Shown: one piece after another, positions 24,276-37,277 of the stretch
Layout: each line of letters starts with the position of its first letter
How positions within the stretch are numbered: the stretch's first letter is position 1
Source of the DNA: a virus
Lineage: Duplodnaviria > Caudoviricetes
Length of the DNA stretch: 64,000 nucleotides
Virus record (IMG/VR): IMGVR_UViG_3300013936_000002
Coordinates: 1 to 64,000 of that record
Reading direction: 5' to 3' (one strand)
Translations under genes and position numbers: made by a program
Notes under the pieces: model-generated
Told to the model about the DNA's origin: nothing
Seen by the model: the letters and a program-made list of their open reading frames with translations, nothing else
The model's database searches: none

Positions 24276-24995
24276 TTAAATTATACTAAAGATAGTTTTA
24301 ATTATATCAATAGTATTATCATCACCTGATATAAAATAATATTGTTCATTTTCTTTTACAACTTTTGCATTATGTTTATTTAACATGTTAGTAAAAGTAT
24401 CTTTATTTTTAATTTTAATTTTTTCAATTCTTGTCGTAGATACATCTTTAACTTTCTTACTATCTAATAATATGAAATAACCATTAGAAGATTTTTCTAC
24501 ATTTTTATTTTTTTGTCTTGCTATGAAATTTAATGTATTAACTGCATCTTCCCAATCATCAGTATAATAACTTAAATCTTCAATTAATTTACCATTAACA
24601 TATTCTTTGATAATATATTCATCATAATCATTTTTTCTTTTTACTAATGTTATATAATGATTTGAACGAGGAGCATCATTTAAATTAATAACTAAAGTAT
24701 TGTCATCTTCCCAAGCAATGTTATCACATTTAATATTGTCTTTTTTTAATGCTGCTTTAATTTTACCCATTACTTCATCTTCAATTTTAAAATTATTTAA
24801 TTTTTTAGAATCAAACAATTCTTTTTTCTTATCTAAATAATCATAAGAATATTGTTTGTTTCTATCAGTAATATAAAGTTTGCTATCTTTGACTTTGCAA
24901 CTAAAATTAAATGATTTTCCTAAATCTTCATTTTTATATTTGATAGGTTTATTTAAGCTATTTAATGCAGTTTTTAAATTATTTAATTTCATCAT
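24276..24995 (-). CDS. modular protein with D-S-K linkers (putative capsid cargo polyprotein)
   Basis: KVKDSK, FDSKK, LDSKKVKD motifs separate unrelated segments. Confidence 0.6.
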   Translation of the reverse strand: MMKLNNLKTALNSLNKPIKYKNEDLGKSFNFSCKVKDSKLYITDRNKQYSYDYLDKKKELFDSKKLNNFKIEDEVMGKIKAALKKDNIKCDNIAWEDDNTLVINLNDAPRSNHYITLVKRKNDYDEYIIKEYVNGKLIEDLSYYTDDWEDAVNTLNFIARQKNKNVEKSSNGYFILLDSKKVKDVSTTRIEKIKIKNKDTFTNMLNKHNAKVVKENEQYYFISGDDNTIDIIKTIFSII

Positions 24996-24998
24996 AAA

Positions 24999-25742
24999 TT
25001 ATCTCCTATTTTTATCTCTTCTTTTAATATCTGCCCTTAATCTTTTTTCATATTCATTTTTATCAGATAAAATTATTTGTCTAGTTTGATTAATTAAATC
25101 TTTAATTTCTTTTAATCCTTCGTTAACTATTTCATCAAATAACTTAAGAGTTTCTTCAAAAGAAAAATAATTACCAATACCATTTTGCTCAACAGTCATA
25201 TATAAAGAATTTAAATGATAAATAACATCATCAAATGTTAGTTTAAAAAGTTTTTCTTTTAAATCTTCATAAGAAATAGAAGATTTAAAATTTTCTTCAA
25301 AATCATTATCTTCATCTGAATCACTAAAAGACATAATTAAATCGGCATATCTATCCCATAAAATATTTAATAATTGTTCATATTCTTCATCAGTAATATC
25401 ACCTCTATTATGTGCAAAATCAATACGCCTTTCAACATAATCATCAGGTTCAACTGTTTCAACATGTTTTTTTAATTTTTCAAATCTTGATGAACCATCA
25501 TAAATAGGACTATCAATAGGTTTATATTTTTCATCATTACAATCAATAATTAAATACTCTAAATTATCTTCTTTTTCTAAATCATTTTTAACTTTTTTAG
25601 CATTTGATAAAGTCATTTCATGTCTTTCAACAATAGCATTATAACCATAAGTATGCCATCTTGATTCTAAGACAATTGCATAACCTTTCTTAATATCAAC
25701 TACTTTTAATTCTGCATCTTCAAAATAAACTTTGTTTTTCAT
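24999..25742 (-). CDS. modular protein (putative capsid cargo)
   Basis: Short leader ending FED-A, internal IYD-G and FSD-S boundaries; located in head module. Confidence 0.5.
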   Translation of the reverse strand: MKNKVYFEDAELKVVDIKKGYAIVLESRWHTYGYNAIVERHEMTLSNAKKVKNDLEKEDNLEYLIIDCNDEKYKPIDSPIYDGSSRFEKLKKHVETVEPDDYVERRIDFAHNRGDITDEEYEQLLNILWDRYADLIMSFSDSDEDNDFEENFKSSISYEDLKEKLFKLTFDDVIYHLNSLYMTVEQNGIGNYFSFEETLKLFDEIVNEGLKEIKDLINQTRQIILSDKNEYEKRLRADIKRRDKNRR

Positions 25743-25769
25743 TTTCTTTCTCCTTTTAATTTATTTTTT

Positions 25770-26249
25770 TTAATTTGACCCTGGTATAGGTCCAGATGTT
25801 ATAACCATTATACTTGGAACACCTTTACTTGTTAACAATGCAATTAATTCTGCACCATAAGCACTTTTGTTCCACCATACATATTCAGAACCATTAACTA
25901 AACTTTTATCTAAATCAAACGATTTACTAAACCCACCAACTGTTGCATTAGTTAATAACCCCTTAGTAACACCACCAGCAATACTACCTAATGTAGATCC
26001 ACCTGGATTTTGTTCGCTTTGACCAATGATATATAAATAATGCGCAATACATAAACTCATAGCATATTTCCAATCACTACCAAATATTGAATAAAATATT
26101 TTATTATTAGCGATTGGATATAAATTGTCAAAAGCTACTTTACCTTCATCAGTCTCCATGTATTTTTTATATTCTCTTCTCCAAAATAAAAAATCAGCTA
26201 TTGTAAATGGTGGATTTTCTTTATCAGTATTAATTCCAACAATTGCCAT
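25770..26249 (-). CDS. DUF4054-like head-tail adaptor
   Basis: AMSLCIAHYL, ATVGGFSKSF, WWNKSAYGAEL motifs. Confidence 0.8.
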   Translation of the reverse strand: MAIVGINTDKENPPFTIADFLFWRREYKKYMETDEGKVAFDNLYPIANNKIFYSIFGSDWKYAMSLCIAHYLYIIGQSEQNPGGSTLGSIAGGVTKGLLTNATVGGFSKSFDLDKSLVNGSEYVWWNKSAYGAELIALLTSKGVPSIMVITSGPIPGSN

Positions 26250-26252
26250 AAA

Positions 26253-27059
26253 TTACTCCTTTATTTTAATTGACCAACCATAAGTTGGTGAATGTATAAC
26301 TTCGGTTTGATAATCAAAATTCATAATGATAAAATCATTTGTTTTATAAGCAGATTGCATATCATCAAATCCTGCAAGTAAATTTTGCTCTGGTAAAACT
26401 TCGCTATACATAGGAGTATTCATGTCCATGATAGCTTGTTCAAGTTCATCCCATTGTTCATCACTTAATGAATCTTTTACTTTTGAATCACTAAAAACAA
26501 CTTTACCTTTTCTTAAATTCTCAAGCAATTCAATATGATGTGCTTCTTCTTTTAAAATATGACTTAATACATAAATAGCATTTTTATCATCAGTCATAGC
26601 GATTGCATTTTTATAATCTTGAACAGCTTTTCTTTCTTCAGTTAATAAATACTCAAAATCAATGCTTGGTTTCTTTTTAGGTTTTCTACCTCTTTTAGCA
26701 TCATGAATACAATCATTTGTATTATGACTAATAATCAAATCAACGATATGTTCAATATCTAATTTTTTCAAACCAAATGAATCTAAATAATCAGATAATT
26801 CTTCCCTAGTAAAAACTTCATTTTCATCAGTATAATAAAAATTTGAAAGTTTATCAAAATTAATTTTTTTATTATCAACTAAGAAATCAATCGCTTCATC
26901 ACTAGTCATTAAATCATCTAAAGAACTATAATTTTCTTCAGCCCATATTTTGCCTTTATCAATATAATCTCTAGCTAAATCATATTCATCTTCATATTTA
27001 GGTTCTTCAGGAACTGGGTTATCTATATAATCTTTGAGCTTTTTTATTTTGTATTGCAT
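26253..27059 (-). CDS. modular protein containing a ferritin-like two-helix module
   Basis: EERKAVQDY...ILKEEAHHIELL between IHD-A and SDSKVKD-S linkers. Confidence 0.65.
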   Translation of the reverse strand: MQYKIKKLKDYIDNPVPEEPKYEDEYDLARDYIDKGKIWAEENYSSLDDLMTSDEAIDFLVDNKKINFDKLSNFYYTDENEVFTREELSDYLDSFGLKKLDIEHIVDLIISHNTNDCIHDAKRGRKPKKKPSIDFEYLLTEERKAVQDYKNAIAMTDDKNAIYVLSHILKEEAHHIELLENLRKGKVVFSDSKVKDSLSDEQWDELEQAIMDMNTPMYSEVLPEQNLLAGFDDMQSAYKTNDFIIMNFDYQTEVIHSPTYGWSIKIKE

Positions 27060-27121
27060 ATTAAATAATATCCTCCTTTAACTCATTATAACATATCTTT
27101 TTTTTATAATATCATAAATAG

Positions 27122-27152
27122 AAAAAAAGATATAAAAACTTATATCTTTTTT
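27122..27152 (-). terminator. intrinsic terminator after tail tube gene
   Basis: AAAAAAGATATAA-AAAC-TTATATCTTTTT hairpin. Confidence 0.7.
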
Positions 27153-27177
27153 CTTTTTTAAATTAACAATTTAAATT

Positions 27178-27666
27178 TTAAATTGATGGATACATAATTA
27201 CTCTACCACAAGTAAAGCGCCATTCTTGAGTTTGAGATGCTGCTTGGAATTGTTGATCTGGAATTTTAGTTATATAACAATCTTCACAAATACATATTGG
27301 CATACCATCTTCACTTGAATTACTATTAATTGTAATTGTTAAACCTGGATAATTTCCTTGTATTGATTCAAAGATTGAACATAATTGAGTAAGTCTAATT
27401 ACTAAATCTGAGATTTGATTAATGTTAACAGAACAAATACCAGTTTTATCAAGACTTAATTCATGAACCCAAGAACCAGTAGCATCACCTGTTGTTTTCC
27501 AAGCATCGGTATTTCTTGAAACTGTGATTGTTCCAACAAAACTACCTTCACCATTTTCACCTGGTCCACCTATTGCAATACTTCTAGTAGAAATAACACT
27601 TGTTGGAATTTCATCAGGAATAGTAAGAATTAATTGATAATCAGCTAAACTATATCTATTTGTCAT
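27178..27666 (-). CDS. tail tube protein
   Basis: Follows sheath; WKTTGDATGSWV, DCYITKIPD, QEWRF pattern of DUF3277-like tubes. Confidence 0.75.
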   Translation of the reverse strand: MTNRYSLADYQLILTIPDEIPTSVISTRSIAIGGPGENGEGSFVGTITVSRNTDAWKTTGDATGSWVHELSLDKTGICSVNINQISDLVIRLTQLCSIFESIQGNYPGLTITINSNSSEDGMPICICEDCYITKIPDQQFQAASQTQEWRFTCGRVIMYPSI

Positions 27667-27680
27667 TGTTCTTACCTCCT

Positions 27681-28754
27681 TTAATAAACTTCACCAACTA
27701 TATTAATTAATCTAATAGCATAGCTATCAGCTATTAATAAATAAATTCTAGGTAATTGATGTTTTTTCTTTTCTTCATTGGTTAATGATGAAAAAGGCAT
27801 GATAACGAATTTATAGCCCAAAGATAATAATGTATCTTTTTTAATGATAGTTGTTTGCTCAACTACCCAATCTTCTTCTTCCCATACTTTATTTGTAGAT
27901 AAATAACCATTTGTTCTATAACGATTTAATTCATCAACTATTGTATTTGAGATAATATTTAATCCTGTTTGGTTATATCTTAATTTTGATTTTAATACAT
28001 TACATAATCTTTGAGTTAATGTTTGAGTTAACATTATTTTGTAGAAATGATTTACTAAATCTTTTCCTGATGTTGTATTACCACCAATATTGACACTATC
28101 ACCTGTTAATATAATATCAGCATTAAAATTGTTTGCTAATATGTTTTTAACAATGCTATCATCATCAATTAAATAATTTTCGCTATCTTTTTCAATAGTA
28201 AAATTATAATCATTAATTGTTCCATAATAAACATTAATTTTACTTAAATATGCTGCAATGGTCATTTCATAACCTGGTAAACCATTTGCACCAAGGTATT
28301 TAACAATTAAGTTTTCAATGTTTAATGATTCATCTAAATCACTAGCAGTATTAGAATAAGTAATAAACATTTTTTCATAAATACCAGTAAAGAATAAATC
28401 ACTATTTATATTTTCAACTAATGTTTTTGCATCGGTTAAAGTCATATTAAATAATACAACTACTATTTCTTCCATAGGTAAAGTTTTTAATGTATCTTTT
28501 TCTTTACCTTTTTCAACATTTATATAATGAATTTCTTTGCCACCATTGTCAATGAAATATTTTATATATTTTTTTAATGTATCATCTGTATTATCAGGAA
28601 TAGTTGTTGAAGATGTTATTTCAGCAGTATTTTCTCCGTTAAATTTAACACCTGAATTTCCTAATAAAACAATTGTTTCTCTTGATCCACTTAAGGTAGT
28701 AGTTTCATGATAATTAATATTTATGTCAACAAAGTTTTTTAAACTTACACTCAT
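27681..28754 (-). CDS. tail sheath protein (DUF3383-like, short)
   Basis: MSVSLKNFVDININY start; C-terminal LRYNQTGLNII...GYLS...INIVGEV typical of sheath. Confidence 0.75.
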   Translation of the reverse strand: MSVSLKNFVDININYHETTTLSGSRETIVLLGNSGVKFNGENTAEITSSTTIPDNTDDTLKKYIKYFIDNGGKEIHYINVEKGKEKDTLKTLPMEEIVVVLFNMTLTDAKTLVENINSDLFFTGIYEKMFITYSNTASDLDESLNIENLIVKYLGANGLPGYEMTIAAYLSKINVYYGTINDYNFTIEKDSENYLIDDDSIVKNILANNFNADIILTGDSVNIGGNTTSGKDLVNHFYKIMLTQTLTQRLCNVLKSKLRYNQTGLNIISNTIVDELNRYRTNGYLSTNKVWEEEDWVVEQTTIIKKDTLLSLGYKFVIMPFSSLTNEEKKKHQLPRIYLLIADSYAIRLINIVGEVY

Positions 28755-28809
28755 ATTAATACCTCCTTATAATTAGTTTTTATTTTTTTCATTTTATCTT
28801 TTCCTTTCT

Positions 28810-29370
28810 TTAAAATGATTTAACAATAAGATTAGTTTTTAAGCCACTTTCACTACAATTAGTATTAAAGGTTTCTTCATCATCATTTAAATTGATTATG
28901 TTATGTCTTACTTGTAAATTAAATGTAATATCTTTTCTCAACCACATAGTATCATTAATAAACTCATTTACTGAACTTGGATTACTTATACCTTTTAAAT
29001 AAATACCTAAATCATGTAATTGATTAACTACTTGTTCGGTTTTAAATCTTGTACAAATCTTTTGTGAGATGTAATATGAGCTATTGCCATATATTTTCAT
29101 TAAGAAAGTATAATTCGCATTGTAATCAATCGTATTGTCGTTATTAACGATAGCCACATTGCTTTCATTTACATCTTCGTTTAATTCAAAGATTATAAAG
29201 CAATCAGTGGCATCGTAAGACATTTCTTCTTCGCCATTTAATATTTTAGTAAGTTCTGGTCCACGAATACTAAACGCATTTAATATTCTATCAATATCGA
29301 CTTCAGCTTGTTTACTTAATATTTTTCTCAAATTCTTAATAATATCTTCATATCTAATAGCTTTAATCAT
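28810..29370 (-). CDS. neck/tail terminator protein
   Basis: Position before sheath; beta-rich 186 aa. Confidence 0.55.
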   Translation of the reverse strand: MIKAIRYEDIIKNLRKILSKQAEVDIDRILNAFSIRGPELTKILNGEEEMSYDATDCFIIFELNEDVNESNVAIVNNDNTIDYNANYTFLMKIYGNSSYYISQKICTRFKTEQVVNQLHDLGIYLKGISNPSSVNEFINDTMWLRKDITFNLQVRHNIINLNDDEETFNTNCSESGLKTNLIVKSF

Positions 29371-29786
29371 CTGATTTTATCTCCATTTAAATACTCAATA
29401 TATTCTTTTAAGTCTTTATAATTATTAAGATTTACAAGTCTTAATCGACAACTTCTAACACCATACTCATCATAATCATTCCAATCATCAACTAACAAGC
29501 AACGATTTTTATAAATGATAAAATCGCCATTTGTAATACGATAAATGTTCTTACAAAAGAAATCATAAGTCATACTATCGGTATTTCCATCTTTACTAAA
29601 TTGATGTGTTGTTTTTCCTGGTTGTAATGAACCTCTTATTGTCAATTTATCAAATTTAGTGATTCTACGACCTAATTCATCACATTTAAATCCTGTTTGT
29701 ACATACCAATCATAATCGAAAGCAAACAACTCAATTGCATCGTCGAACCAAGTTGGATCAACAACATGATTTTGTAAATCATTCAT
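29367..29786 (-). CDS. head closure (stopper)-like protein
   Basis: IRGSLQPG...ITNGDFIIYK pattern and position. Confidence 0.6.
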   Translation of the reverse strand: MNDLQNHVVDPTWFDDAIELFAFDYDWYVQTGFKCDELGRRITKFDKLTIRGSLQPGKTTHQFSKDGNTDSMTYDFFCKNIYRITNGDFIIYKNRCLLVDDWNDYDEYGVRSCRLRLVNLNNYKDLKEYIEYLNGDKIR

Positions 29787-29816
29787 AGAATCACCTCCTT
29801 CAATAATTTTTATATT

Positions 29817-31229
29817 TTATAAAAACCAACCTTTTTTAAGTGTTTTTGCGTATAATTCTAATTCTTCAGCTTCTTCAGTATAACCTTTTTTTCTAGCTTT
29901 TTCAGCCATTGCACTATAACTATCAACAACTCTTTCAAGTCTTGTAAGAGATGTTGTTTCTAATGAGTTGTCAATACCATTATTTAAATCGTTATACTTT
30001 TGGAAAGCATCTTTAACTGTTAATCTTAATTGTGAACTAAAAGGTAATTCTTTTGAATCTTTAGTTTTAACAATCTTAAATGGTTTTTTTCTACTATCTT
30101 GTACACCTGCTTGATAATGTTCGGCAAAATATTTAATAGCATCTTCAAAACTACTTGCTTTTTCTTCTATTTCTTCAGCAAATGCTCTATCAATACCTGC
30201 ATCAATCATAGCATTTCTTAAAGCTGTTGCAAAAGACCATCTTTCCCAAGTTCTATTTTGATATTTATTAGCACCTTCGCCTCTTTGATTACCAAATAAA
30301 AACTTAACATGTTGTGTATTGTAAGCTCTTGTTGATGTCGTCCAAGCACTAGCCATAACTTGTTTACCATCTCTAGTAATTGCACTTGCCATTTCTTCAA
30401 CGCCGCCCCATGTATCTTTTGTTTTTTTACTATCTGTAAGTCCAATGTTCCAAGCTTCTTTTAATGTATTAATAGCTGTTTCCATTCTATTAGCAATATC
30501 ATCAGTAGCCCATTTTTTAGCTAATTCTAATACACTACTATATTCTTTAATTAATTTTTTTAAAGCAAAAGGTTCTTGAGTTTCTTTATATCTTTCAATA
30601 TTTTTATTAACATCATATTCCATATCTCTTAAATACATTCTAAATGCAGCAGCAAGAGCATCTTTATCTTGTTGCTCAATAAGTTTTTTTATAGTAGTTA
30701 AATTTGTTGCAGTATTAGTAGCGACACTAGGTGCAGGATCAGCGAGTAAAGGCATATCTTTAACTTTTTTACTATCTTGTAATTTTTCAGCCCAAGCACT
30801 TGTTAAAGTATTTAAATATTTCTTATAACTTCCTTTTTGATTTGGTGTACCATGAACTTGGATTAAATCATTAATTTCATTATAAGTTTTAAGTAAAGCA
30901 GTTAATGATTTTTTTGTTTGAGTTTCTTTATATTCTTCAATATGTTTATCGACATCAGCTTTAATATCTTTTAATGCTAATAGAAAAAAGTCTTTAACTT
31001 CTTCATCTTCACCTTTTTTAATAGCTTTTTTAATATTAGTCAAAGAAGTCATAGCATTAGTAACAACATTTTCTCTTGGATCACCTAATAAAGGCATATC
31101 TTTAACTTTTTTACTATCTCTGACTAATGCTTTCATAGCATTATAAGCTCTTCTTCTAACTTCGTGGTATGACAATCCTTCACAATCTTTGATTTCAACT
31201 GTATACCCATTATTAAATTTAATTTTCAT
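29817..31229 (-). CDS. polyprotein-like protein: at least four modules separated by DSKK[VT]KD linkers
   Basis: RDSKKVKD, QDSKKVKD, TDSKKTKD, QDSRKK...TKDSK; first two modules are paralogous. Confidence 0.8.
   Translation of the reverse strand: MKIKFNNGYTVEIKDCEGLSYHEVRRRAYNAMKALVRDSKKVKDMPLLGDPRENVVTNAMTSLTNIKKAIKKGEDEEVKDFFLLALKDIKADVDKHIEEYKETQTKKSLTALLKTYNEINDLIQVHGTPNQKGSYKKYLNTLTSAWAEKLQDSKKVKDMPLLADPAPSVATNTATNLTTIKKLIEQQDKDALAAAFRMYLRDMEYDVNKNIERYKETQEPFALKKLIKEYSSVLELAKKWATDDIANRMETAINTLKEAWNIGLTDSKKTKDTWGGVEEMASAITRDGKQVMASAWTTSTRAYNTQHVKFLFGNQRGEGANKYQNRTWERWSFATALRNAMIDAGIDRAFAEEIEEKASSFEDAIKYFAEHYQAGVQDSRKKPFKIVKTKDSKELPFSSQLRLTVKDAFQKYNDLNNGIDNSLETTSLTRLERVVDSYSAMAEKARKKGYTEEAEELELYAKTLKKGWFL
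30747..31119. repeat. 31-bp direct repeat (30747-30777 and 31089-31119) encoding DSKKVKDMPL
   Basis: TAAAGGCATATCTTTAACTTTTTTACTATCT identical in both copies. Confidence 0.9.
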
Positions 31230-31258
31230 TATTCAATTTCCTTTCTTTTTATAAAAAT

Positions 31259-31312
31259 AAAAGAGCTAATAGACTGAGCTTACTTTATAAATTCAGTCTA
31301 GATCAGCCCTTT
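31259..31312 (-). terminator. extended hairpin/terminator between capsid gene and polyprotein gene
   Basis: TAGACTGA/TCAGTCTA inner stem and AAAAGAGCT/AGCCCTTTT outer stem. Confidence 0.55.
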
Positions 31313-31365
31313 TAATATATATCTAACTTATTTATATTGGAGAGATAACTAAGTTGATACCTAAA

Positions 31366-32463
31366 TTATTTTGTAAAGTCCCAATATGATACAACACCTA
31401 ATTCAGTATTTGAAGTGTTATATGGTAATTGTACTTGTGATACTTGACCTACGAAAGCAGATGTATAAGACATCTTGTCAATGTTAGGTAAAGTAATGTA
31501 GTGTTGCATTGGATAAGGCATATCAATTCTTACGAAATCTTCATCTTTTCTATAAGCAACAATTCTACCATGTCCACCAACACCCGCAGTATTTAAGTCA
31601 GGTCTTGCTTCAATAACTAATTTGAAATCTTCAGCACCTGATTGAGCTTTACCTAAGTTGTGTTCTTTAATAAAGTCAAGTAATGTATTAGTGTATAATT
31701 GTGAATATCTACTAACAGCATCACTTTGTACGAATGTTGGAACTAAAATTCTATTTGGTAAAAGTGTAATGTTCATATTAGATTGATCTAAATATGTTTC
31801 AAAGATACCATTGATGAAACCTACGAAAGCATCATCTGATAATCCTTCAAATCCTTTGCCAGTAGCTTCATTGTTATCAATTGTTGTAACTTTAACATTA
31901 GCATCATTGAATAAACCAGTGCCACCATTTAAACCTAAGTAAGCTACTTTTTGTACAAAGAAATCCCAACCTGCTAAAATAGCATTTCTATAAATTTCTT
32001 CAATTGATTTTTGTAAATCAATTTTTTTCATTTTTTCTAATTCGATAAATCTTAAATCATAAGCAACTTCATAAGTATAGACATTAACATTCTTTTGTGT
32101 TAATGAAGCATTTACTCTAGGAATGAAGTTAGCATTATTACCAACAACATTTCTCATTTCATTCATAATACCTGCCCAGTTGACAGTGTAGTATGTAACG
32201 AAATCTACAAATCCTCCACCTGGATTAATATCAATATCTTTTTGATAAGTAAAATATACTTTTGGCTCATATAATTTTTTATGTAATTTTGCTAATGATG
32301 TTGATAAGAAAGCAAAGTTAGCATCATGAATTTTTGAATCGCCAATAAATGCTTTTGCTCTTGTACCAAACATTTCATTAACTGAGAAACATCTTCCTCT
32401 ATTCTTTGCTGGAACGGAATCAACAAAGAAATTTTTTGTAACTTCTGAATCAACGAAACCCAT
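31366..32463 (-). CDS. major capsid protein (DUF2184-like)
   Basis: DANFAFLSTSLAKL...YEP start of mature-like region, VAYLG...TGLFN, GRIVAY...MPYP motifs; follows decoration gene. Confidence 0.85.
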   Translation of the reverse strand: MGFVDSEVTKNFFVDSVPAKNRGRCFSVNEMFGTRAKAFIGDSKIHDANFAFLSTSLAKLHKKLYEPKVYFTYQKDIDINPGGGFVDFVTYYTVNWAGIMNEMRNVVGNNANFIPRVNASLTQKNVNVYTYEVAYDLRFIELEKMKKIDLQKSIEEIYRNAILAGWDFFVQKVAYLGLNGGTGLFNDANVKVTTIDNNEATGKGFEGLSDDAFVGFINGIFETYLDQSNMNITLLPNRILVPTFVQSDAVSRYSQLYTNTLLDFIKEHNLGKAQSGAEDFKLVIEARPDLNTAGVGGHGRIVAYRKDEDFVRIDMPYPMQHYITLPNIDKMSYTSAFVGQVSQVQLPYNTSNTELGVVSYWDFTK

Positions 32464-32478
32464 TTCTCTTTCCTCCTA

Positions 32479-32961
32479 TTATTTCATATAAATTTCAGCA
32501 ACTAATGTGTCACCGTGTTTTTCACTAACACCAGTAAATGTCCAAGTTGTTTCAAAATTTGCACCTTTAACTGTTGTACATTTTCCTGCAGCAGTTACAT
32601 ATACTGTTGCGCCTTCTTTAACATCAGCTTCAACTGCAGTTGCATCACAATCAACAGCAATATAGCCCCATATACATAAGTTAAAACCTTCACCTGGTTT
32701 TGTTGCAATGTTTTCATCATTTGCAGGATAAGTTGTAGCAACTTTTACATTTGTTGCTAATACGATACCAGCAATATCTTTTGCACTTGTAAGAGCTGTG
32801 ATTTTCTTGTATCCACCACTTGCACTTCCAAATGTTACTAATTCACCATTATTAACGGATTGGTCACCTTCAAGAACAGCACCTGAAACATTATATTTAT
32901 CGGAAACTGTTGGATAACCTACCATTAATGCTGGAATTTTATTCTTATAAATTAATGACAT
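32479..32961 (-). CDS. head decoration/cement protein
   Basis: 160 aa, between scaffold and capsid genes; AGIVL...GYIAV pattern. Confidence 0.7.
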   Translation of the reverse strand: MSLIYKNKIPALMVGYPTVSDKYNVSGAVLEGDQSVNNGELVTFGSASGGYKKITALTSAKDIAGIVLATNVKVATTYPANDENIATKPGEGFNLCIWGYIAVDCDATAVEADVKEGATVYVTAAGKCTTVKGANFETTWTFTGVSEKHGDTLVAEIYMK

Positions 32962-32964
32962 ATT

Positions 32965-33582
32965 TTATTTTCCTCCTTTATAGCGCATTTTCCACGCTTC
33001 AGCAATTTCATTTTGTTCATCAATCTCTTTGTCACTCAAACTATCTTTAGTTGGTTTTTCTAATGAGCCAATAGATTTTTTTGAATCACATTTTCTTTTT
33101 TTATCAAAGATGACTTCATCTGTATCATCAATTGAATCATCATTTTCAACGATTTCTTCATCTTCATCTTCGACTTCTTCAGCATCATCATCAGCATCTA
33201 AGTCATCAAAATCATCTTCTTTATCGTTATCTTCTTTGATTTCTTCTTTTTCTTCTTCAATCTCTTCGATATCGATATCATCATCTTCAGGTTCGATTTC
33301 TTCTTCCTCAATTTCTTCTTCTTTTTCTTCTTTAATTGATGTATCTTCTTTTTCTAAATCTTCAAGTTTTTCAATTAAAGTTTCTAATTTAGGAGAAAGT
33401 TTAGCAAGTTTCTTTAAACCTACGATTTCTTCTTGAGTTAATGATTCATCAGCGTCTTTTTCTTGAGTATGATGCTTCAATTGTTGTTTACCTTTTAATA
33501 ATGGTCTAACAATAGCTTGTCTTTTTGGTTCTTCAACATTATATTGTTCGCCACTACGATTATCAGTAATTTTAAATCTCAT
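32965..33582 (-). CDS. acidic scaffolding protein
   Basis: Long E/D-rich tract, C-terminal AEAWKMRYK helix; start refined to ATG 33582 after AAAGGA. Confidence 0.65.
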   Translation of the reverse strand: MRFKITDNRSGEQYNVEEPKRQAIVRPLLKGKQQLKHHTQEKDADESLTQEEIVGLKKLAKLSPKLETLIEKLEDLEKEDTSIKEEKEEEIEEEEIEPEDDDIDIEEIEEEKEEIKEDNDKEDDFDDLDADDDAEEVEDEDEEIVENDDSIDDTDEVIFDKKRKCDSKKSIGSLEKPTKDSLSDKEIDEQNEIAEAWKMRYKGGK

Positions 33583-33646
33583 ATAAAAATCATCCTTTCT
33601 TGATTGCATTATAACACTACTTTTTTTTGTGATATAATGAAATTAA

Positions 33647-34147
33647 TTATTTTTTTACTAATTTACAAGTAATATATTGAGATAATCTATCTAATTTATA
33701 TAAATATTGGTTTTCATCTTCTTGTTTTAATAGATTTCCTAATGTATTACTATCTAATAAAAAATTTCTTATCATTTGTTTACATTGTATTTCTATATTG
33801 TTAGATAAAAAAAATAATTTTGAATATATATCATTTTCATTTAAATCATTATTAAAAATGCTATCAACAATTAATTCTAATTCATGATGTATATAGTTAT
33901 TAATTTTAAACAACATTTTTTCTAATACAAATTTACCTGGAATTGTCATTGTGCCATATTCAGTAAAGTACATAATATCTGCAATAGACATAAAAGTTGA
34001 AGTAATTGAACTATCTGTATTTAAGATATTCACTTCAACTTTTTTTTGTCCATTTTCAGAGCTAATTCCAAATTCAAAAGAATAATGATTTAATGAATCT
34101 AAAGCAGTAATTGTACTACCAAATAATTCATCAAATATATCTTCCAT
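33647..34147 (-). CDS. neck/tail-completion protein (gp10-like)
   Basis: ADIMYFTEYGTMTIPGKFVL resembles the A...EyGt..IP.R.F motif. Confidence 0.6.
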   Translation of the reverse strand: MEDIFDELFGSTITALDSLNHYSFEFGISSENGQKKVEVNILNTDSSITSTFMSIADIMYFTEYGTMTIPGKFVLEKMLFKINNYIHHELELIVDSIFNNDLNENDIYSKLFFLSNNIEIQCKQMIRNFLLDSNTLGNLLKQEDENQYLYKLDRLSQYITCKLVKK

Positions 34148-34150
34148 AAT

Positions 34151-34612
34151 TTATTTTGTTAAATCATCTTTGATTTTTTCTTTTTGAGTATCAGTTAAAA
34201 CTAAAGTTTTTTCGATAACTTCAATTATATCATCAATTTCTTTATTTTTACCTTTGAATAATCCAACAAATTTTTGTAATAAAAATCTGCCACCATAGTC
34301 ACGGTAAATAGGATAAAGAGCTTGTGAGCAGCCAAAGACAGAACAACTATATTTAAAAATTACAACAAATGAAAATTCTAAATTAAAGATTTTTACATAA
34401 GCGCAAGTAATTCCAATAGATAAAACTAAAGTAATTACTAAATATAAATAGCTCATGATTTTTGTTAACTTACTAGATTCACCAGTTTCATTTGCTTTTT
34501 TAGTTGGAATAACTTTAGTAAAGATTTTAATTAATCCTACTAAAATCATAACAATTAAGCTCATGCAAACAACAGGCAAACCATATTTAGTCATAATTTC
34601 TTCAAAACTCAT
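34151..34612 (-). CDS. holin-like membrane protein
   Basis: Two to three hydrophobic helices, charged C-terminus; start refined to MSFEE after AGGAGG. Confidence 0.5.
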   Translation of the reverse strand: MSFEEIMTKYGLPVVCMSLIVMILVGLIKIFTKVIPTKKANETGESSKLTKIMSYLYLVITLVLSIGITCAYVKIFNLEFSFVVIFKYSCSVFGCSQALYPIYRDYGGRFLLQKFVGLFKGKNKEIDDIIEVIEKTLVLTDTQKEKIKDDLTK

Positions 34613-34695
34613 TGTTTTATTCCTCCTTTTACATACTTTTAGATATTGCACATAATATATCCAATAATTTTTTAAAAATATCAAATGCTATTAAA

Positions 34696-35064
34696 CTAAA
34701 ACCCTAAAGTTTTATTAGCATCAGGTAATAAAGATTTAATAATATCTTTCTTTTCCATTAATGTTGCTTTAGCATGTTCAATCTTTTCATTACATTCAAC
34801 GATTTGATTTTCGTATGGTTGAACAACATTAACTTTCTTTGTTTTTAATTCTTCTAAAGCATTTTGAATTGAAGCAATTTGATTTTGATAATTAACAATT
34901 TGAGCTTCAATTGGTTTTTCAACATTGACAATTTGAGTTTTAATAACATTAATCTTTTCAGATTGTTCTTTAATTAAAGACAAAACTTGATTAACTTCAA
35001 CTTTTAAATCATCAATAGAAACTTCCTTAACTTCGTAATATTTTCCATCAATTAATTTATACAT
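34696..35064 (-). CDS. coiled-coil protein
   Basis: Start refined to MYKL after AGGAGG. Confidence 0.6.
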   Translation of the reverse strand: MYKLIDGKYYEVKEVSIDDLKVEVNQVLSLIKEQSEKINVIKTQIVNVEKPIEAQIVNYQNQIASIQNALEELKTKKVNVVQPYENQIVECNEKIEHAKATLMEKKDIIKSLLPDANKTLGF

Positions 35065-35089
35065 GTTAATTTTCCTCCTTTCATTTAGT

Positions 35090-35680
35090 TTATTGGATAA
35101 TTCCATATTTTCTTAAAAAGAACAATATGGTTAGTACAATCATTGCAACGATAAATAATGTTAATAAAAACAATATTATCTTTTTTGCAGGCTTTGTAAA
35201 TTCAGCAAATCGCAAGACTACTGCATTTACACAATCCATAGTTATATTAATAATTCCTGTAATTAATCCTATAATTGTATAATATAAGATTAAGAAAGGC
35301 ATTAATATGAACATCAAACATTTTAACATTCTATTTGGTAAAGGTTTTTTTAAACCAATTAATTCAGCTATACCTTCATAAGTACCATAGTTAGCTTCTT
35401 GTAATTTCTTTTCAGATTCTTTTGATTTGATATGTTCTTCTTTTAAAGAAGTTTCAGCACTTTGCTTTAATTCTTCTTTTTTAAGATTTGTAATATCATC
35501 AACTAAGTGTTCATCTTCAACTGCTTTAGCAGTAGCAGCTAAATTAACAATATCTTTAGCTTGCTCTTTAATTGATTTTGATTTATCAAGTTCAATATGA
35601 ATTGATTTATCAACATTAGTTAAAGTAGAAGAATCAACTTCAGTTTTTATTAACTCTTCTTTATTTTCTTCTTCTTCCAT
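35090..35680 (-). CDS. membrane protein with two C-terminal hydrophobic helices
   Basis: Start refined to MEEEE after GAGG; hydrophobic C-terminal half. Confidence 0.6.
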   Translation of the reverse strand: MEEEENKEELIKTEVDSSTLTNVDKSIHIELDKSKSIKEQAKDIVNLAATAKAVEDEHLVDDITNLKKEELKQSAETSLKEEHIKSKESEKKLQEANYGTYEGIAELIGLKKPLPNRMLKCLMFILMPFLILYYTIIGLITGIINITMDCVNAVVLRFAEFTKPAKKIILFLLTLFIVAMIVLTILFFLRKYGIIQ

Positions 35681-35681
35681 G

Positions 35682-37223
35682 TTAATCAACCTCTTTCATT
35701 TTTTCTTTGTAATCATTAATTTGATTGATAATCATTCTCTTAAATTCTTTTTTATTTTCTTCAAAATCAGGATCATCATCTTCATTGACCATGCTATCAA
35801 TTTCTTCTAAAGTCTTTCTTAAAGATTTAATAGTTTCAATATAAAAATCTTTATTGTATTTATCACTATCATCTATTGAATCTCTTCTATTTCTATAAAG
35901 TTCACCAAAGGTCATAGGTGGATTGCTAACATTTGCTCTTACACCTTTAGCAGGAGAATTATAGTTAGCTGGTTTGTAAATATCACCATTATTTGGATCA
36001 ACAAAAGCAAATATAGATTTGCCACCACCAAAATCAATTTGTAATATTTTAACCCATCTAGGTCCAATAGAATATGAATATGTATTACCAAATTTTTCGC
36101 TTTCATGTAAAGCATTTAATTTGTTAACCCAATCTTCAATTTGATTAATAATATCATCTTCGATAAATACATCATTAACACTATCTTTTTTAGATTTGTT
36201 TTCCCAATAAGATAAAGCAACTGCATATCTTTGTTTAGTATCAGGGTATTCAGATTTTGTTTCTTTCATAAATCTAGCAATGAAATCTTTTTTAGATTCA
36301 TTTTCTTTTGGATCTACATCATGAACTTTTAATGTACTAATTCCAATTTCTTTTAAAGCATTTTCAATTGAAGAGCCATTAATTAAAAGTTCAACAAATT
36401 TATCATAAGATTTTATTTCATTATAAGATGGACTAGTCATAAAATCTTCTGCATTAGCACCTGCTGTAAAAAACCAATCTCTTAAATTACTATTTAATAA
36501 AACATCATTAGTATTTTTTAATTTTATCTTTCTAACACTATTTAACCAACTATTCATTTCACTAATCCAGTGATGAACAACATTATCTTCTTTATTATTG
36601 TAAATTTTATCAAAATGTTCAATAAATTTGTTTCCTAAAGAAATACATCTATCCATAGCATCAGCTCTACTTAAAGCCATATCATTAACACTATCTTTAC
36701 TATCAACAATCTTAGCAATTCCTGCTCTACCACATTCACATAATGCAACATGGTTTCCACGAATATTTATTTGTCTTGGATTATTATCATTTGTAATATC
36801 ACAATCATAGCCACATGATAATTCGGTTCTAATGCCATTTTTAATATCTTCAATAGCATCAGGGTCTGTTATGACTAAATTGCCTAACATAACATCTTCG
36901 CCATCTTCGTTTTTACCCCTACGAATATCACGAACAAAACCAACCGATAAATCTTTATAATTATCAGTGGTAACATTTTCATTAGGATGTTCAACAGTAA
37001 TAGGTTTGTTTTCAAAAGATGCTAATGTTTCATTTGAGAAAACATCTTCTGGTTTTCTATCAATATCTATTTCAGTTGTATCACCTTCACAATCAGGGTA
37101 AACTTCACATTTCATATATGTCTGTTTTCCAGTTCTTGCTAAAACTGCGTCCTTACAAATTAAATAACCTTCGCTTGTTTCAAATTTATGTGGACTTAAT
37201 TTTGTATTTGCTAAAAATTTCAT
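35682..37223 (-). CDS. DUF2213-like prohead protease with appended modules
   Basis: [45 protein letters not shown]; C-terminal ~340 aa of modules after DSKDSVND. Confidence 0.85.
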
Positions 37224-37277
37224 AAAATCACACCTCACTTTTATTATAGATTATAATTTTTTTACAATATAATTAAT

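Follow-up and report, generated by a model that had tools for sequence, protein, structure and literature searches.

The window analyzed in this study (64,000 nucleotides, positions 1 to 64,000 of the viral record IMGVR_UViG_3300013936_000002) derives from a tailed phage with a genome of 74,407 bp and 26% GC, in which the head, neck and tail genes are all encoded on the minus strand. Pfam assignments in the window comprised the major capsid protein (PF09950), an E217/Pam3-type cement protein, a protein carrying DUF2213 and DUF7717, the neck terminator, the sheath, the tube and a DUF4054 protein. Between positions 24276 and 37238, a short Asp-Ser-Lys-type peptide or its Asp-Ser core recurs in the DUF2213 protein (the protease protein below), in an acidic scaffold-like protein, in the leader of the capsid protein, and in proteins of 470, 268, 247 and 239 amino acids (aa), as summarized in Table 1. 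A sequence-only reading of this DNA had taken these peptides for sites at which the DUF2213 protease cuts after Asp, releasing small proteins inside the head for ejection with the DNA, as an expandable set of effectors; every peptide that it listed was located at the positions it gave, including the end of the capsid leader, where DSKIHD is followed by ANFAFL (32323-32340). The comparison set consisted of 26 IMG/VR relatives (L numbers below), with capsid proteins approximately 68% identical and GC contents of 26-46%.

Table 1. Genes, modules and peptide sites considered in this study (positions in the window; pI, isoelectric point)
Feature	Position	Strand	Description
239-aa protein	24276..24995	minus	aa 117-162 recur directly behind the protease domain in L021 and L015
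Sites in 239-aa protein	24444-24464		DSK at aa 37, 62 and 178; position given for aa 178, DSKKVKD
247-aa protein	24999..25742	minus	two modules joined at ..SFSDSDEDND (25302-25322); N-terminal module recurs inside relatives' protease fusions
DUF4054 / E217_gp27 head protein	25770..26249	minus	Pfam; in relatives directly behind the post-capsid polyprotein
268-aa protein	26253..27059	minus	N-terminal part, ferritin-like hairpin (26490-26681), junction, 67-aa module (26256-26456; absent in L029)
Site in 268-aa protein	26460-26489		DSKVKDSLSD
Post-capsid polyprotein, 470 aa	29817..31229	minus	leader (aa 1-37), two 114-aa helical modules, alpha/beta module, helical tail
Sites in 470-aa protein	31098-31118; 30756-30776; 30414-30434; 30048-30098		DSKKVKD; DSKKVKD; DSKKTKD; DSRKK..KDSKE
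Major capsid protein	31366..32463	minus	PF09950, Pfam 103 bits; leader aa 1-47; N-arm from ANFAFL
E217/Pam3-type cement protein	32479-32961		Pfam
Acidic scaffold-like protein	32965..33609	minus	214 aa, pI 4.3; three DS sites before conserved C-terminal ..AWxxRYxGGK
Sites in scaffold	33124-33138; 33076-33087; 33031-33045		DSIDD; DSKK; DSLSD
Protease polyprotein	35682..37238	minus	518 aa from GTG; protease domain and three appended modules; PF09979, PF24835, PHROG 530
C-terminal acidic helical tail	35685..35867	minus	61 aa, pI 4.6
Junction 3 of protease protein	35868..35882	minus	DSIDD; conserved in L029
Appended module P3, DUF7717 type	35883..36170	minus	PF24835; PHROGs 818, 3274, 5014
Junction 2 of protease protein	36171..36185	minus	DSVND; conserved in L029
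Appended module P2	36186..36680	minus	165 aa; C-terminal part recurs in protease fusions of L022 and L023
Junction 1 of protease protein	36681..36704	minus	DSKDSVND; putative self-cleavage site behind the protease domain
Protease domain	36705..37223	minus	aa 6-178; ends ..GRAGIAKIV

In the region 24276-37238, the tripeptide DS[KR] was found 12 times against 2.6 expected from within-protein shuffling, a count that none of 3000 shuffles reached, and the remaining 18,875 aa of the proteome held five against 8.9 expected; DSKK occurred six times in the region and nowhere else in the proteome. Likewise, the pattern D[SAT]K{0,2}[VILMC]xD gave 11 sites in the region (expected 1.2) and four in the rest of the genome (expected 4.0). 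The shorter [ILVMFY]-x-D-S was present 17 times in seven candidate proteins (expected 3.9) and at 0.15 per 100 aa elsewhere, and the control pairs SD, ES, DT and NS were flat in the same count. Two of the five sites of the 470-aa protein belong to a duplicated module and hence are not independent. Less weight attaches to partial sites in which the second Asp is missing, namely those at positions 37 and 62 in the 239-aa protein and at positions 378 and 391 in the 470-aa protein. The Ser of the motif was encoded in the window by AGC, AGT, TCT and TCA, and thus the constraint appeared to act on the peptide rather than on a DNA word. The region itself was picked post hoc, and the independent confirmation comes from the relatives.

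Across the relatives, the general form of the element was D-[SA]-K(0-2)-[VILM]-x-D. The capsid leader ended in D-[ASTQ]-[KR]-[VIML]-H-D-[AT]-NFAFL in 22 of 22 complete copies, and the DUF2213 domain ended in ..GRAGIARIV-DS-(0-4 residues)-D in nearly all of 17 relatives (the exception, L011, has DSVDN), with DSVND, DSVDD, DSIHD, DSKVED and DSKKVKD as variants. Since several of these lack Lys, the Lys of the window version is optional, and by this comparison DSVND and DSLSD, which had been set apart as second motifs, are the same element as the DSK-type motif. In the scaffold-position open reading frames (ORFs) of relatives, DSKKS.GS was conserved.

The same pattern as counted in the window, D[SAT]K{0,2}[VILMC]xD, gave 64 sites in 17 relatives' protease ORFs (expected 3.5), 25 in 18 ORFs encoded behind the capsid gene (post-capsid ORFs; expected 1.6) and 18 in 22 capsid leaders. 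The other ORFs of the relatives (102,000 aa) held 33 sites (expected 21.5), several of which lie in previously unrecognised polyproteins, and the motif density was approximately 6 per 1000 aa in the protease-fused and post-capsid proteins vs 0.3 in other ORFs. In order to avoid fitting our own regular expression, 605 exact and gapped patterns were compared between a deduplicated set of polyproteins and the background; DS..D ranked first (57 vs 23, 16-fold, p = 5e-33), followed by pieces of [IV]-x-D-S-[VIK]-K-D. A set of 150 representatives at <=50% identity contained 228 sites vs 17.6 expected. The shuffles and the unbiased count of patterns ruled out chance or composition as the source of the clustering, and the enrichment of the motif in head-module over other proteins, proposed earlier as a check, was evident both in the window and in the 26 relatives. 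Among 82 distinct sites, position -2 from the first Asp was hydrophobic in approximately 78%, and the residue after the last Asp was mostly Ala, Ser or acidic. These sites used 11 different Asp-Ser codon pairs with Ser encoded by both TCN and AGY, indicating selection at the protein level. The motif reads best as hydrophobic-x-Asp then Ser or Ala, usually in two tandem units, [ILV]-x-D-S-(K)-[VI]-x-D-[A/S].

The protease protein was examined with respect to its boundaries, family and fold. While the mechanical ORF starts at GTG 37238, its relatives all start at a Met that matches ATG 37223, and the protein is probably 513 aa long from the latter. PF09979 (DUF2213 / Pa193_gp24) matched aa 20-174 at 130.7 bits against a cut-off of 22, as it did all eight relatives' protease ORFs scanned (134-147 bits), and PF24835 (DUF7717) matched aa 379-439; PHROG 530 annotates the DUF2213 family as 'head maturation protease'. 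Residues H84, S141 and H163 were invariant in 14 aligned sequences (alignment A2). An AlphaFold2 model of the domain (predicted template modelling score, pTM, 0.72) matched T4 gp21 (5jbl_B) with Z 12.9 and a root-mean-square deviation of 2.7 over 144 aa (Foldseek probability 1.0), the next structural entry having Z 5.6 and the herpesvirus assemblin proteases of human cytomegalovirus and Epstein-Barr virus Z of approximately 5. As modelled, the protease domain is of the T4 gp21/assemblin fold. Proteases of the gp21 type cut after Glu at [LIASG]-x-E, cleave themselves on the C-terminal side and use several sites per propeptide (PMC5694885). Four Cys residues (C28, C142, C146 and C167) are also invariant in the domain of this clade, and are not so in Pa193 gp24; they could form a metal site or disulfides.

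Behind this domain, module P2 matched no Pfam or PHROG family, whereas P3, of DUF7717 type, is a stand-alone small protein in other phages. By analogy with residues 286-326 of Pa193 gp24, the acidic helical tail is a candidate capsid- or scaffold-binding end. Among cultured phages, the nearest DUF2213 protein, that of Bordetella phage IFTN9 (44% identical), was considered as a possible counterpart and set aside, its C-terminal side being an ordinary acidic scaffold tail and not a module chain. In the relatives, the protease ORFs ranged from 275 to 1133 aa, and behind the domain consisted of segments of approximately 55-110 aa each ending in DS[IVM][KN]D, with eight sites in L012 and L023, six in L022 and five in L017; the segments were mostly singletons by BLAST.

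A likely position of the cut was obtained from the capsid proteins of related phages, among them the cultured Pbunaviruses Pa193 and E217. The window's capsid leader carries hydrophobic-x-D-S at aa 5, 15 and 42, and the major capsid protein of Pam3 (8hdt), the only match of the capsid in searches of the PDB, aligned with it from aa 46. The protease-domain profile matched the 'scaffolding protein' gp24 of Pa193 (9b40_G, E 3e-6), residues 286-326 of which are bound inside the mature capsid; whether gp24 is cut was not determinable in that study, which modelled the capsid protein from residue 66 and did not call the gp24 domain a protease (PMC11456595). The capsid proteins of PB1 and Pa193 read ..GSAM-D64-S65-N66-FTAP and the E217 deposit 8frs_B begins with NFTAP, so that the Pa193 and E217 models start at N66, directly behind AMDS. 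Because AMD-S-NF aligns with IHD-A-NF of the window, the cut would fall at, or one residue past, the last Asp of the motif. A cut at or next to Asp, close to what the sequence-only reading proposed, would agree with the residue at which the ordered part of the Pa193 and E217 capsid proteins begins. The PB1 protease-scaffold likewise carries AADS, PTDS, AMDS and AQDS. The simplest cleavage rule compatible with these sequences would be hydrophobic-x-Asp then Ser or Ala, with each junction comprising two such sites. A literature search on DUF2213 returned no paper on cleavage by the family or stating its cleavage rule.

The 470-aa protein is encoded behind the capsid gene. Its junctions at aa 38, 152, 266 and 378/391 were kept in the homologues P0001-P0004, and in its AlphaFold2 model the segments with predicted local distance difference test (pLDDT) scores below 50 (aa 39-54, 152-175, 262-276 and 375-429) coincided with the motif positions, separating a beta-beta-alpha leader, two helical bundles, a four-strand/three-helix unit and the helical tail. 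The two helical modules are diverged duplicates, approximately 35-40% identical, the linkers of which (DSKKVKDMPL) are identical over ten codons. Foldseek returned only generic helical repeats for the model, and an Atlas search with the alpha/beta module found unnamed small viral proteins only. A search of Pfam and PHROGs with 10 modules of the window and 10 relatives' polyproteins gave nothing above threshold, with weak ferritin-like matches only.

The post-capsid ORFs of the relatives (L002-L026; P0007-P0156) share an N-terminal leader of approximately 28 aa, MKK[FY]x[IV]..G.KK.[IV][YF]A....A[ILV], followed by DSK.KD, and this leader is a candidate capsid-address tag. The 37-aa leader of the 470-aa protein resembles it in topology only. 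In the L017, L018 and L022 ORFs, 'DAKSHD' occurs at residue 12 and was rejected as a junction, being part of the shared leader. In the distant post-capsid polyprotein L030:3665-5014 (P0069), a helix-hairpin-helix domain (HHH_2, 28.9 bits) and a weak HAM1_C-like stretch precede the ferritin-like module described below; apart from this HHH_2, the chains showed no domain of a nucleic-acid type.

One module could be assigned to a superfamily. It is a helix hairpin of approximately 60 residues that corresponds to aa 127-196 of the 268-aa protein and that, in nearly all relatives, makes up the conserved core of the post-capsid ORF, with the invariant series L, E, A, Y, I, E, H, L arranged as E-x6-Y ... 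E-x2-H; E16, Y23, E46 and H49 were invariant in 17 sequences of 21-38% identity (alignment A4). Its profile matched bacterioferritin (9viw, 4.8e-9), NE0167 (3k6c, 9e-5) and Myxococcus xanthus EncC (7s8t, 2.7e-4), as well as Dps-like proteins, encapsulated ferritins (approximately 1e-2) and designed di-iron proteins (down to 3.5e-16). With its ligands E ... E-x-x-H and a second-shell Tyr, the hairpin falls within the ferritin-like di-iron superfamily. With respect to PF22277 (encapsulated ferritin; gathering cut-off 27), the window module scored 21.4 bits and full-length representatives 19-20, and five of the 17 hairpin members matched at E <= 0.1 (best 2e-7); as single sequences fall below the Pfam cut-offs, the hairpin is labelled ferritin-like here rather than EncFtn. 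No C-terminal encapsulin targeting peptide was found on the module, which ends at the protease junction DSVKD or DSKVKD. The profile retrieved 2111 cluster representatives, 257 of them at 1e-10; these proteins are 79-716 aa long, and the position of the module differs among them. The 228 junction motifs (17.6 expected) given above belong to these proteins, most of which share the 28-aa N-terminal leader directly before DSK.KD, and both of the two contigs sampled had the same synteny. That the gene with the ferritin-like hairpin adjoins the capsid gene throughout the clade has a parallel in encapsulin/EncFtn operons.

The modules also proved to be exchanged between loci and between close relatives. 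Parts of the 268-, 247- and 239-aa proteins recur in relatives, either inside protease fusions or in the post-capsid ORF. The usual gene order was portal, two small genes, protease, several ORFs, scaffold, cement, capsid, polyprotein (where present), DUF4054, adaptor, neck, sheath and tube. In the window and its close kin, including L029, the DUF4054 gene is found behind the tail tube gene, together with three cargo-type genes (24276-29786; compared with L012, L021 and L023), and, as the 268-aa gene directly precedes DUF4054, its product is the positional homologue of the relatives' post-capsid polyprotein. Compared with L029, in which the protease is 96% and the 470-aa protein 84% identical, the 268-aa protein was 90% identical up to ..DS, where the L029 protein ends and that of the window adds the 67-aa module. 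The 239-aa protein was 94% identical up to ..LLDSK, followed by a different C-terminus, which in L029 is the second half of the window's 247-aa protein, and the 247-aa pair diverged behind ..SFSDS. Thus, three of three module swaps broke exactly at DS junctions, and the earlier description of the module set as 'expandable' was borne out, near-identical phages differing by whole modules at the junctions. The interval 34151-35689 on the minus strand, between the protease and scaffold genes, contains ORFs of 199 and 177 aa with predicted membrane-spanning stretches and a 136-aa coiled-coil ORF; none carries the junction motif, and the 199-aa ORF is kept in L012.

Based on these observations, the repeated peptide is probably the substrate site of the phage's own DUF2213 head-maturation protease, which would cut the module chains in the prohead. 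The sharing of one motif by the capsid leader, the end of the protease domain, the scaffold and the module junctions, where it behaves as a recognition site, argues for the DUF2213 protease as the cutter, as had been suggested from the sequence alone, and the reading of these proteins as polyproteins with protease sites is well supported by the sequence comparisons; cleavage itself, the bond, the location of the unfused proteins in the head and the later fate of the released modules, from retention and ejection to any effector role, are what we infer from them. In the proposed scheme, the protease would release itself from its C-terminal appendages during prohead maturation, dice the 47-residue capsid leader and trim the scaffold, and separate the chains of small folded modules (approximately 55-115 aa). 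The modules would enter the prohead either fused to the C-terminal end of the protease or in polyproteins of their own, encoded behind the capsid gene, and in the window phage the block of cargo-type genes would have been relocated behind the tail tube gene. The head entry of the 239-, 247-, 268- and 470-aa proteins is suggested by those of their modules that are fused to the protease or placed in post-capsid ORFs in relatives, and the modules together appear as a fast-changing, mostly unknown set.

Several points weigh against this interpretation. A profile of the relatives' leader matched no protein of the window, including the 239-, 247-, 268- and 470-aa proteins, the head entry of which is hence the less certain. 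The modules matched no known effector or anti-defence family in Pfam or PHROGs, and the partial DSK sites without a second Asp may be no true sites. The sequences would fit a cut behind either the first or the last Asp, or one behind Asp-Ser, equally well. The counts in the relatives contain related loci, the non-independence of which deduplication lowers and does not abolish, and all members of the clade are metagenomic; the cultured-phage collection contained no close relative of the capsid (<30% identity) or of the 470-aa protein.

If the sites are cut, the modules could still be disposable extra scaffold or core, cleared before DNA entry, rather than delivered cargo. The scaffold and the capsid leader indeed bear the same sites, two modules of the 470-aa protein are plain, scaffolding-like helical bundles, and in SPN3US the presence of several sites is known to help clearance (PMC5694885). 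We nevertheless consider this unlikely, since folded, diverse and mostly unrelated modules exchanged between near-identical phages would be odd for parts of one capsid, the conserved di-iron hairpin with its invariant ligands implies chemistry and not filling, and part of the C-terminal region of Pa193 gp24 remains in the virion. On the other hand, the peptide might not be cut at all, and might serve as a docking or flexible-linker motif that binds the protease or the inside of the capsid and directs proteins into the prohead, in line with its presence in every candidate head-internal protein and with the short address peptides of encapsulin cargo. Its location at the boundary between the capsid leader and the N-arm, where related capsids lose their N-terminus, and precisely where the protease fold ends in nearly all 17 relatives, together with up to eight copies per chain, more than an address needs, renders this quite improbable.

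The ten identical codons at the two DSKKVKDMPL linkers, between modules of such low identity, and the breaks of the module swaps at the joints would also be expected if the conserved element were a DNA recombination joint for module shuffling, with the peptide as a by-product. Considering that both Ser codon classes and 11 Asp-Ser codon pairs are used, that the peptide is kept across GC contents of 26-46%, and that the sites in the capsid protein and at the protease end do not join modules, this is the explanation to which we give the least credence, although short DNA identity may aid exchange as a side effect. Returning to the interpretation of the peptide as a protease site, the ferritin-like module speaks for a function within the capsid and not for an injected weapon. 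It is conceivable, although we hold this as doubtful, that the capsid of this clade is partly encapsulin-like, with the half-ferritin and changing small proteins loaded as protease-cut polyproteins and staying with the DNA; the ferritin-like part might shield the genome from iron or peroxide damage or act at entry, and the variable modules might be first-minute host-takeover or anti-defence factors swapped like cassettes.

DUF2213/Pa193_gp24 is the head protease-scaffold of many phages (844 records), including therapeutic Pseudomonas Pbunaviruses and many Klebsiella, Escherichia and Vibrio phages. A rule of hydrophobic-x-Asp then Ser or Ala would permit prediction of mature capsid termini and recognition of head-internal proteins from sequence alone, would list many small 'dark' phage proteins as candidates for co-delivery with DNA, and would enable the design of cargo loading into such capsids. 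Furthermore, it was recently proposed that procapsids may hold encapsulin-like cargo (PMC13669383), for which the ferritin-like module offers a concrete case.

The statement in the sequence-only reading that such a system had not been described was too strong, as close precedents exist in T4, phiKZ/SPN3US, P1 Dar and the polyvalent proteins. The T4 system of IPI-III/Alt, the capsid targeting sequence and gp21 (PMC9026906, PMC9958956, PMC5694885) is alike in its gp21-fold protease, in the hydrophobic-x-acidic rule, in a short N-terminal leader removed at a site (here predicted for the relatives' post-capsid proteins), and in non-structural proteins loaded into the prohead and trimmed, as would be the case here under the proposal. 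It differs in that the acidic residue here is Asp followed by Ser or Ala instead of Glu, in that many modules share a chain, often fused to the protease itself, and in the lack of sequence similarity to the capsid targeting sequence or the internal proteins; the window proteins do not carry the 10-20-residue N-terminal targeting peptide ending in a protease site that defines the T4 type. In phiKZ, 201phi2-1 and SPN3US, [S/A/G]-x-E is cut by gp175/gp245 (PMC5694885, PMC10052503, PMC7411985), and one motif likewise spans the capsid, C-terminal self-cleavage of the protease and head-internal proteins, with several sites per propeptide. Those are, however, giant phages with a protease of another family and another P1 residue, using separate genes and long propeptides, not bead-on-string modules of 55-115 aa.

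Pa193, E217 and PB1 (gp24, 9b40 chain G; PMC11456595) share the PF09979 N-terminus with a C-terminal extension inside the capsid; their capsid protein loses approximately 65 N-terminal residues right behind M-D-S, and x-D-S recurs in the gp24 extension, but this extension is a single acidic scaffold, in place of diverse modules strung together. A further parallel is offered by the polyvalent proteins of phages and conjugative elements (Iyer et al., 2017, PMC5512222) and by the Dar proteins of P1 (PMC9024508, PMC12810830), which are also multi-module, lie among head genes, have fast-evolving domain content and are thought to be packaged and delivered with the DNA. Polyvalent proteins, however, contain recognisable enzyme domains and embedded zincin or other peptidases, whereas the cutter here would be the prohead protease, and chains with several recognisable effector or enzyme domains were found neither in the window nor among the 10 relatives' polyproteins. 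In the EncFtn/Flp cargo of Family 1 encapsulins (5da5, 7s8t, 2e0z), E-x6-Y and E-x2-H likewise lie on a hairpin of two helices, the gene of which adjoins that of an HK97-fold shell, but the phage module is flanked by protease junctions instead of bearing an encapsulin targeting peptide, and its shell is a DNA-packaging capsid. Compared with all these systems, the new elements would be an Asp-Ser rule for DUF2213 proteins, chains in which as many as eight modules are fused to the protease, the exchange of modules at the joints between near-identical phages, and a half-ferritin as a conserved member of the set.

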